Shown here: one piece after another, positions 40,899-41,036 of the stretch
Layout: every line of letters begins with the position of its first letter
How positions within the stretch are numbered: the stretch's first letter is position 1
Source: a virus
Lineage: Duplodnaviria; Caudoviricetes
Length of the DNA stretch: 64,000 nucleotides
Virus record (IMG/VR): IMGVR_UViG_3300006149_000006
Span: 31,584-95,583 of that record
Direction: 5' to 3' (one strand)
Translations under genes and position numbers: made by a program
The notes under the pieces: model-generated
Seen by the model: only the letters and a program-made list of their open reading frames with translations
What the model was told of the DNA's origin: nothing
Databases searched by the model: none

Positions 40899-41036
40899 CG
40901 CAGGAAGTTGGACTTGAACCAACGCCAATCTACTACTATGCCAACAGTTGGCTATTCCATCAGCACTAATAATAAACATATCGCCAATGTAACCAACGGA
41001 CAATACCGCTGTGCTCTGCCACTGAGCTATTCCTGC
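40899..41036 (-). ncRNA. tRNA-like RNA with a ~90-nt hairpin in place of the anticodon arm
   Basis: Perfect acceptor GCAGGAA/TTCCTGC, D arm GCTC-AGTGGCA-GAGC, T arm GTTGG-TTCAAGT-CCAAC. Confidence 0.7.

Follow-up and report, generated by a model that had tools for sequence, protein, structure and literature searches.

The nearest described counterparts of the gene considered here are transfer RNAs (tRNAs) with an enlarged variable region and non-decoding RNAs that share the tRNA shape. The gene itself occupies 138 nucleotides (nt) on the minus strand of a 64,000-nt stretch of DNA, hereafter the window, which corresponds to positions 31,584 to 95,583 of IMG/VR record IMGVR_UViG_3300006149_000006 (Duplodnaviria; Caudoviricetes), a 95.6-kb virus record found in mouse-gut metagenomes. 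In class II tRNAs (Leu, Ser, bacterial Tyr, Sec) and in the allo-tRNAs, as in this gene, a complete cloverleaf and L-shaped core carries an extra arm at the variable loop (PMC7609411; PMC5389517). Those arms are simple stem-loops of ~10-25 nt on molecules that decode, whereas the domain here measures ~67 nt and combines an invariant single-stranded 12-mer with a nested hairpin and perhaps a pseudoknot, and the anticodon arm departs from the canon in every lineage. In a review of non-canonical tRNAs, variable arms that reach 10 nt or more appear as simple arms, and nothing comparable is described there.

Transfer-messenger RNA (tmRNA) offers a second likeness, in its tRNA-like acceptor and T arm, its large, structured, pseudoknot-bearing insertion and its processing as a tRNA. 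Unlike the present RNA, it has no D stem, includes several pseudoknots and a reading frame for a tag, and is ~360 nt long. Phages, too, are among the places where YrlA-type RNAs occur. These bacterial Y RNAs (RF02553) resemble our RNA as non-coding mimics of the tRNA elbow, but their 5' and 3' ends form a Ro-binding stem with the tRNA-like part internal, while the ends here form an acceptor stem.

What the window holds is a genuine gene for a tRNA-shaped RNA in which an extra domain is conserved and the anticodon arm is non-canonical; it belongs to a family of 17 distinct sequences in 10 lineages. We think it rather probable that this gene encodes a stable, tRNA-processed, non-decoding tRNA-shaped RNA that acts on a tRNA-binding partner. 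An earlier sequence-only reading had proposed an undescribed phage non-coding RNA at this site, and in that part the proposal is supported: the RNA is tRNA-shaped and probably non-decoding, in Rfam it matches the generic tRNA model and no other family, Rfam 15 likewise returns only the generic tRNA match for the members, and the literature searched held no description of the family.

The tRNA core and its extra domain

The sequence-only reading had described acceptor, D and T arms without a mispair, and on the minus strand they are just so: GCAGGAA/UUCCUGC pairs at 7/7 positions, GCUC/GAGC at 4/4 and GUUGG/CCAAC at 5/5, and the T loop UUCAAGU, G18G19 and U8-A9 are all present. The Rfam tRNA model RF00005 aligns from end to end (model positions 1-71; 43.3 bits vs a cut-off of 29), with one large insertion in the middle of the molecule, and the fold of the whole molecule beats chance (z = -3.3; 0/200 shuffles as good). 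Default ARAGORN makes no call on 40899-41036. Measured against a canonical elongator tRNA, the gene has the stems, a score above the cut-off, the G18G19/T-loop core and the 15-48 pair, but it has neither an anticodon stem of 5 base pairs (bp) with a 7-nt loop containing U33 and purine 37 nor a canonical variable region: ~70 nt separate hairpin and T stem, where class I has 4-5 nt and class II a simple arm of ~10-25 nt.

Between the D and T arms, where the earlier count was ~90 nt, there are 88. The anticodon arm was then thought to be replaced by one long stem; here the folds disagree, in that a short hairpin persists in both the minimum free energy (MFE) and the centroid structure and the insert lies 3' of that hairpin, in the variable region. 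The helices that had been drawn, GUUGGUUA/UAGCCAAC and CAUUGGCG/UGCUGAUG, are complementary in the window and find no support in the family. Their 16 pairs form in 49.1% of cells of the family alignment, which is the value for shuffled columns (49.1 +/- 0.6), and the fold that contains them reaches -35.9 kcal/mol, where the fold backed by the family comes to -45.5 and the MFE structure to -47.7.

The extra domain that the family does support begins with a 12-mer, ACAUUGG(C/U)GAUA in its family form, placed 2-4 nt past the anticodon-like hairpin and occurring once in the window. A closing helix, 6-11 bp long, opens 0-1 nt beyond the 12-mer and reaches to within 2-4 nt of the T stem. It is recovered by independent folding in 17/17 sequences, though its sequences are unrelated between lineages. 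Cognate strands of this helix pair with a mean of -11.6 kcal/mol vs -5.6 for non-cognate ones, only 6/90 non-cognate combinations matching the cognate, which is the behaviour of the acceptor and T stems as well; 6/6 of its modelled pairs show two-sided changes. In the window the helix is rich in G-U pairs, so that the structure exists on the minus strand only and is to be regarded as a feature of the RNA. Enclosed by it is a variable inner hairpin with an invariant AGCCA in its loop. This motif is complementary to UGGC within the 12-mer, and a contact (pseudoknot) between the two is predicted by RNAalifold, both sides being invariant and hence showing no covariation.

Across the family, compensatory two-sided changes affect all 7 acceptor pairs, all 5 hairpin pairs and 3 T-stem pairs. 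In the model-fitted family alignment, which leans towards structure, 95% of cells pair, vs 67.8 +/- 1.5 after shuffling (0/500 reach 95%) and 33-47% when the partners are slid. At the tertiary pair 15-48, 11 sequences have G-C and 6 have A-U, with exceptions in 0/17, and even L119 and L218, which are close relatives, differ in it (here and below, L numbers designate loci and X numbers sequencing runs). This perfect covariation of the Levitt pair shows that the RNA adopts the tRNA L-shape, with the insert inside the variable region. Homologues retain the insert (17 distinct sequences), and covariation is strong by the closing helix, the 15-48 pair and the model-fitted alignment; on two of the three points that the sequence-only reading had named as able to overturn it, the outcome is therefore in its favour.

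A decaying tRNA pseudogene filled out with junk DNA would be at home in this array, where several tRNA-like units score 19-33 bits, and a sister strain, described below, has lost the gene. We find it barely credible nonetheless, as every stem is perfectly paired, the 12-mer of the insert is identical across phages of G+C 0.46 to 0.68, and both the helices and the tertiary pair covary across 10 lineages.

The anticodon-like hairpin of the window can be read as 6 bp with a 6-nt loop or as 5 bp with the 8-nt loop GUAUUGUC. In the family its stem covaries, while stem length (5-8 bp) and loop (5-8 nt) vary; kept by compensatory changes, a helix is required, but not its length or its loop. A canonical anticodon arm is found in 0/10 lineages. 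The loops CAUUUAA and CAGGUAA have A33, CGAUGUG has G33 and UUCCACA has a pyrimidine at 37; other members have stems that are too long (6-8 bp) or loops that are too short (5 or 6 nt), and the window departs in either of its two readings. Near-identical family genes, moreover, differ in the middle "anticodon" base (GAU vs GGU) and in the discriminator (A vs U). Since no lineage has a canonical arm, decoding is unlikely, and these loop and stem sequences suggest that the RNA is probably not a decoder.

The same hairpins bear on the idea of a tRNA gene with a small intervening sequence in the variable loop, removal of which would leave a working tRNA. Inserts of 45-75 nt are common in phage tRNA genes and their removal often restores a normal anticodon arm; in all members of the present family, dropping the 12-mer and hairpin leaves a variable loop of 5-7 nt, and ARAGORN in intron mode does call an intron. 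After such removal, however, no lineage gains a canonical anticodon arm, and the ARAGORN models conflict between homologues (Trp-CCA, Tyr-GTA, Tyr-ATA). Models of group I/II introns and ribozymes find no match on the element at E up to 1 or on the members at E up to 5. The difference observed between strains is that one has lost the entire gene and not just the insert, and the differing "anticodon" and discriminator of near-identical genes mean that identity is not conserved. An intervening sequence is thus, in our estimation, quite improbable.

Several other identities were tried and set aside. A group I intron needs a catalytic core, P3-P9, of at least ~200 nt in the anticodon loop, and the insert is ~67 nt and outside that loop; the ARAGORN intron models were rejected as inconsistent between homologues. 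A mini-intron at 28/29 of the anticodon stem does not suit an insert 3' of the hairpin with motifs unlike types A and B, the two insert types discussed in the last section. tmRNA was dismissed after the ARAGORN tmRNA search and Rfam gave no tmRNA match, and a YrlA or Y RNA because the ends form an acceptor stem and the members show no RF02553 match. A hammerhead-like CUGAUG, a fluoride-like GGCGAU and a nested topology like that of hepatitis delta virus (HDV) are not conserved in relatives and have no Rfam match. Nor does the 12-mer appear to be a host-RNA mimic or a base-pairing target: extra copies in five carrier genomes are chance matches in coding sequence, and near-matches to it show no enrichment in the window.

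Table 1. Features of the gene and its immediate surroundings, in window coordinates; RNA position p corresponds to window coordinate 41037-p.
Feature	Coordinates	Strand	Evidence or remark
Whole tRNA-shaped gene, 138 nt	40899..41036	-	RF00005 43.3 bits, family model R1 103.9 bits
Acceptor stem, 5' strand GCAGGAA	41030..41036	-	Partner UUCCUGC at 40900-40906
D arm GCUC-AGUGGCA-GAGC, including G15 and G18G19	41013..41027	-	Sequence; G15 covaries with the base preceding the T stem
Anticodon-like hairpin CAGCGG-UAUUGU-CCGUUG, RNA positions 26-43	40994..41011	-	MFE and centroid folds
12-mer ACAUUGGCGAUA, single-stranded	40979..40990	-	Invariant in 16/17, C to U in one
Long hairpin of the extra domain	40928..40977	-	MFE fold
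Closing helix B, strands GUUUAUUAUUA/UAGUAGUAGAU in the window	RNA positions 60-70 with 99-109		
Inner helix of the long hairpin	RNA positions 72-80 with 90-98		
Apical loop AAUAGCCAA	Invariant AGCCA at 40949-40953	-	
UGGC linker, last C = position 48, Levitt partner of G15	40924..40927	-	15-48 covariation in the family
T arm GUUGG-UUCAAGU-CCAAC	40907..40923	-	Sequence, Rfam model, family covariation
Discriminator G	40899	-	CCA not encoded in the window copy
Presence/absence unit, gene and 3' spacer, 150 nt	40887..41036	.	Missing in the sister strain
tRNA-Leu(UAG)	40814..40888	-	10 nt downstream; ARAGORN, Rfam 57.7 bits
Weak tRNA-like unit	41049..41123	-	12 nt upstream; Rfam 19.1 bits, below cut-off

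A family of gut-phage genes and its surroundings

A structural pattern consisting of a D arm, 70-100 nt and a T loop gave L119, which shares a 16-mer with the insert of the window. The family was recovered in IMG/VR by a 9-mer plus T loop and in bacterial genomes by the 12-mer, AGCCA and T loop, and its members lie in IMG/VR phages and in bacterial genomes or prophages of Oscillospirales. The six bacterial-genome copies come from an uncultured Butyricicoccus, Agathobaculum sp. Marseille-P7918 (two), Gemmiger gallinarum and two metagenome-assembled genomes of Clostridia/Oscillospiraceae, from sheep and roe-deer rectum. One phage, L225, holds a second copy, so that two paralogues with different hairpin loops stand in a single genome, and a later scan yielded at least ten further loci of one lineage (Lys-type) with the C-to-U variant of the 12-mer. 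Exact scans of viral, metagenome and genome collections for the window/L119 16-mer returned only L119-type copies or chance matches.

A covariance model, R1, built from the family alignment scores the members at 96-128 bits and the window at 103.9, the latter value being partly circular because the window is in the seed. On 100 other loci all other matches, to ordinary or insert-bearing tRNAs, score <=49 bits. The L075 gene, with the same D arm and an 81-nt insert, was rejected as a member at 39.9 bits. In 151 sampled Oscillospirales genomes, under strict filters and with 21 candidates scored per genome, R1 matched only the seed genome, which shows rarity in hosts, not absence; among the matches listed, none has the extra domain outside a tRNA body. 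The family is so far restricted to phages and prophages of gut Oscillospirales, and the window member is its divergent, AT-rich representative from a mouse-gut phage.

Closer to the window itself, megablast and blastn searches of GenBank phages with the region gave no match. The neighbouring 366-amino-acid protein, by contrast, led to 57 loci of related phages, in which ARAGORN finds 5-13 ordinary tRNAs at the same site, and a DNA search of 50 of these phages' records found no copy of the element. No close counterpart of the tRNA body exists among 333 tRNAs of the related arrays, so the gene probably arrived whole.

It is also evidently dispensable. A sister strain from the mouse-gut metagenome of another study (run X8) is represented by a 5247-nt DNA contig that joins 40886 to 41037 with GAA between, its flanks being ~97% identical to the window on both sides, while the identical gene is present in run X7, from a third study. 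Because the sister strain is without exactly the gene and its spacer, the gene is accessory, not essential, and has been gained or lost as a unit. The X8 strain has in addition lost 25 nt at 41307 and carries unrelated sequence at 41396-41406, and the region is a hotspot of small rearrangements.

The element sits in a co-oriented tRNA array that is followed by the 366-amino-acid protein, the terminase large subunit and the portal, and in 9/10 lineages it lies co-oriented just upstream (0.05-1.8 kb) of genes for the terminase large subunit, the portal or the head. It could on this account act in cis where the late (head and packaging) operon begins, as a processing, stabilising or regulatory signal for the terminase mRNA. 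In L238 and L300 the element is followed at 30 nt by a Shine-Dalgarno sequence and ATG, without an intervening terminator, and in most members a terminator-like hairpin with a U-tract stands 5-10 nt ahead of it; some also have one behind. In L204, L216, L213 and L305, on the other hand, a terminator-like hairpin with a U-tract precedes the next gene, and in the exceptional L309 the element precedes a DnaB helicase gene and not late genes. The 5-13 ordinary tRNAs that relatives of the window keep at this site mark it as a general landing place for tRNAs, and the sister strain without the gene retains the same downstream genes. Encoded CCA and 15-48 covariation, too, indicate a mature tRNA-type molecule, and we judge a cis-acting role to be distinctly unlikely.

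Other features of these loci deserve record. The tRNA-like units that ARAGORN does not call in the window score low with Rfam (41049-41123, 19.1 bits; 43471-43542, 32.7; 45880-45947, 29.7; all minus strand), and the array appears partly eroded vs the 5-13 good tRNAs of related phages; the family loci L238, L300, L305, L216 and L225 have no ordinary tRNA. Within the array, just upstream of the element (41467-43356, minus strand), is an RnlA/RnlB-type pair comprising a 502-amino-acid fusion of an RnlA-type toxin with an RNase H1 N-terminal domain and RNase H, together with an RnlB-type antitoxin (123 amino acids). At 44298-45085 and 46329-47123 (minus strand), between tRNA units, lie a split IS4/IS5-type transposase, in two frames (DUF4096 and DDE_Tnp_1), and a Bro-N/KilAC antirepressor. 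In L238 (4995-7373, minus strand) and its twin L308, two separate frames downstream of the element (132 and 664 amino acids) each match the terminase large subunits of other members, and this terminase gene may be split or interrupted.

Putative maturation and possible roles

The ends of the gene make the tRNA-like processing suggested by the sequence-only reading plausible. CCA follows the discriminator in 11/17 genes, where chance would give 1 in 64 per gene, and the leaders are AU-rich with U at -1. In four lineages that start with C or U, a G at -1 faces C73 to form an eighth pair, as in tRNA-His. Taken as sequence features, these would fit a separately matured tRNA-type RNA. A promoter scan found sites no more frequent than in shuffled sequence.

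Downstream of the L204, L305, L216 and L213 elements one sees a conserved multi-hairpin spacer of ~100 nt (...AAUAGCGGGGCAUCYGGCCGCGAAAGUUCYRGAUGC...), which recurs upstream of the L291 and L225 (2090-2225) copies and ends in a terminator-like hairpin plus UUAUUUUAU; this spacer could represent another structured RNA associated with the family. Beside members there are also sub-threshold Rfam matches, to D12-methyl RNA (48.4 and 46 bits; cut-off 57) and to abiF RNA (34.5 bits; cut-off 37), the sites being L311:4075-4128, L270:633-698 and L270:1541-1576.

In the account that we favour, RNase P and the 3' tRNA-trimming enzymes would excise the RNA from the tRNA-array transcript, after which it would gain CCA and accumulate at ~141 nt. 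It would then act in trans, its tRNA body docking on a tRNA-binding protein and its extra domain conferring specificity. As to what that protein might be, the version we would put first, tentatively and in the knowledge that anything so specific is unlikely, is that the RNA is an inert look-alike that would occupy some host enzyme directed at tRNAs, a defence nuclease for instance. We prefer it because the gene is accessory and phage-borne, because its loops look like true anticodon loops with disabling changes, and because the loops of the paralogues differ.

One can be more explicit still. The extra domain might turn the tRNA body into an inert or uncleavable plug for a host tRNA-directed enzyme, for example a defence nuclease or a modifier of CCA ends triggered late in infection, with the variable anticodon-like hairpin setting which tRNA is imitated. 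The L225 paralogues with their different loops and the accessory presence and absence of the gene fit a plug, and, while this too must be called unlikely, it would amount to a new class of RNA-based phage counter-defence.

The CCA encoded in 11/17 genes can also be taken to mean that a host synthetase charges the RNA, which, excluded from translation, would deliver its amino acid to another enzyme as an aminoacylated off-ribosome carrier. Certain anticodon triplets do occur with matching discriminators (CCA with G73, UUU with A73), G-1:C73 is found in four lineages, and one phage has two paralogues with different loops. Against such a carrier, near-identical genes differ in both discriminator and "anticodon", the hairpin is free in length and loop size, and no gene of aminoacyl-transferase type is conserved nearby; we regard it as highly doubtful. 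Decoy or carrier, if either is true, would represent a new phage route to the manipulation of host tRNA biology.

A number of observations weigh against a trans-acting, tRNA-processed RNA. Several tRNAs of the window array are weak and low-scoring, so decay does occur there. Packaging genes aside, no partner protein is conserved beside the gene across lineages. The contigs from RNA runs (X16, X17) span 41116-42400, not 40100-41115, and are hence mute on expression. Within the extra domain, both sides of the predicted pairing between 12-mer and AGCCA are invariant, and the continuous 20-bp hairpin of the window may keep the loop out of reach of the 12-mer.

Comparison with phage tRNA systems

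At the least, genes of this kind are unfit for annotation as tRNA-Trp or tRNA-Tyr with introns. Their carriers are phages of Clostridia that abound in the gut, and the genes either escape standard tRNA finders or are mis-called by them as intron-bearing tRNAs. Two carriers, Agathobaculum sp. Marseille-P7918 and Gemmiger gallinarum DSM 109015, are cultured, which makes the family testable at the bench.

In the structural-pattern search it was common for a phage tRNA gene to combine an insert of 45-75 nt with an intact acceptor stem. In many, an insert of 45-65 nt interrupts the anticodon stem on its 5' side near 28/29, with a normal anticodon loop after it. Type A inserts (L115, L138, L116, L135, L176, L091, L183, L188) have a hairpin loop ATGTTYGTG and ACAGCAA, and type B inserts (L084, L128, L087, L113, L160, L147) end in RGTTACTTC. 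In L145, L185, L187 and L175 the anticodon-region insert contains a T-arm-like GGTTCGAnTCC and is thus itself tRNA-shaped. Variable-region inserts of 60-80 nt, of different families, occur at L150:155-289, L150:1926-2059, L094:1311-1449 and L075:1206-1349. The two L150 genes share AAGCAAMC..CACCTCGG, one of them having a UUA (ochre-reading) anticodon loop, and the L075 gene, with its window-like D arm, is followed by a tRNA-Met. Finally, a 103-nt tRNA in the Gemmiger gallinarum prophage (L270:517-619, minus strand; Rfam 58.8 bits) has a variable arm of ~33 nt and the anticodon loop CUCUAAA, with the amber-reading anticodon CUA.

The tRNA genes of Lak megaphages reportedly contain "enigmatic" introns. 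Phage tRNA genes with structured mini-introns or with tRNA-shaped inserts are like the present family in combining a short structured insert with an intact acceptor stem. Their inserts lie, however, in the anticodon stem or loop, and removing these restores the arm, whereas here the insert is 3' of the hairpin, its motifs are other ones and there is no canonical arm to restore.

With respect to nucleases, T5 is said to carry variant tRNAs that resist or neutralise the anticodon nuclease of PARIS. The phage tRNA-Tyr that acts against Septu (PMC13096335) is, like our RNA, phage-borne, tRNA-shaped and accessory, with altered anticodon loops. Such anti-nuclease tRNAs differ in being working tRNAs of normal size that replace the cleaved host tRNAs, while the RNA described here has an extra domain and no usable anticodon arm.

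There remain the small RNAs of T4. RNA C and RNA D, which we take to be tRNA-like, come from a phage type and a host that are unrelated to those of the present family. They are, as here, small, stable non-tRNA RNAs in a phage tRNA cluster, with roles that are unexplained (PMC3014915), and so form a loose precedent; by sequence they show no relation to the family. Non-decoding RNAs of tRNA shape are few, comprising tmRNA, the Y RNAs and the tRNA-like ends of viral RNAs, and to these the family makes a compact and conserved addition.

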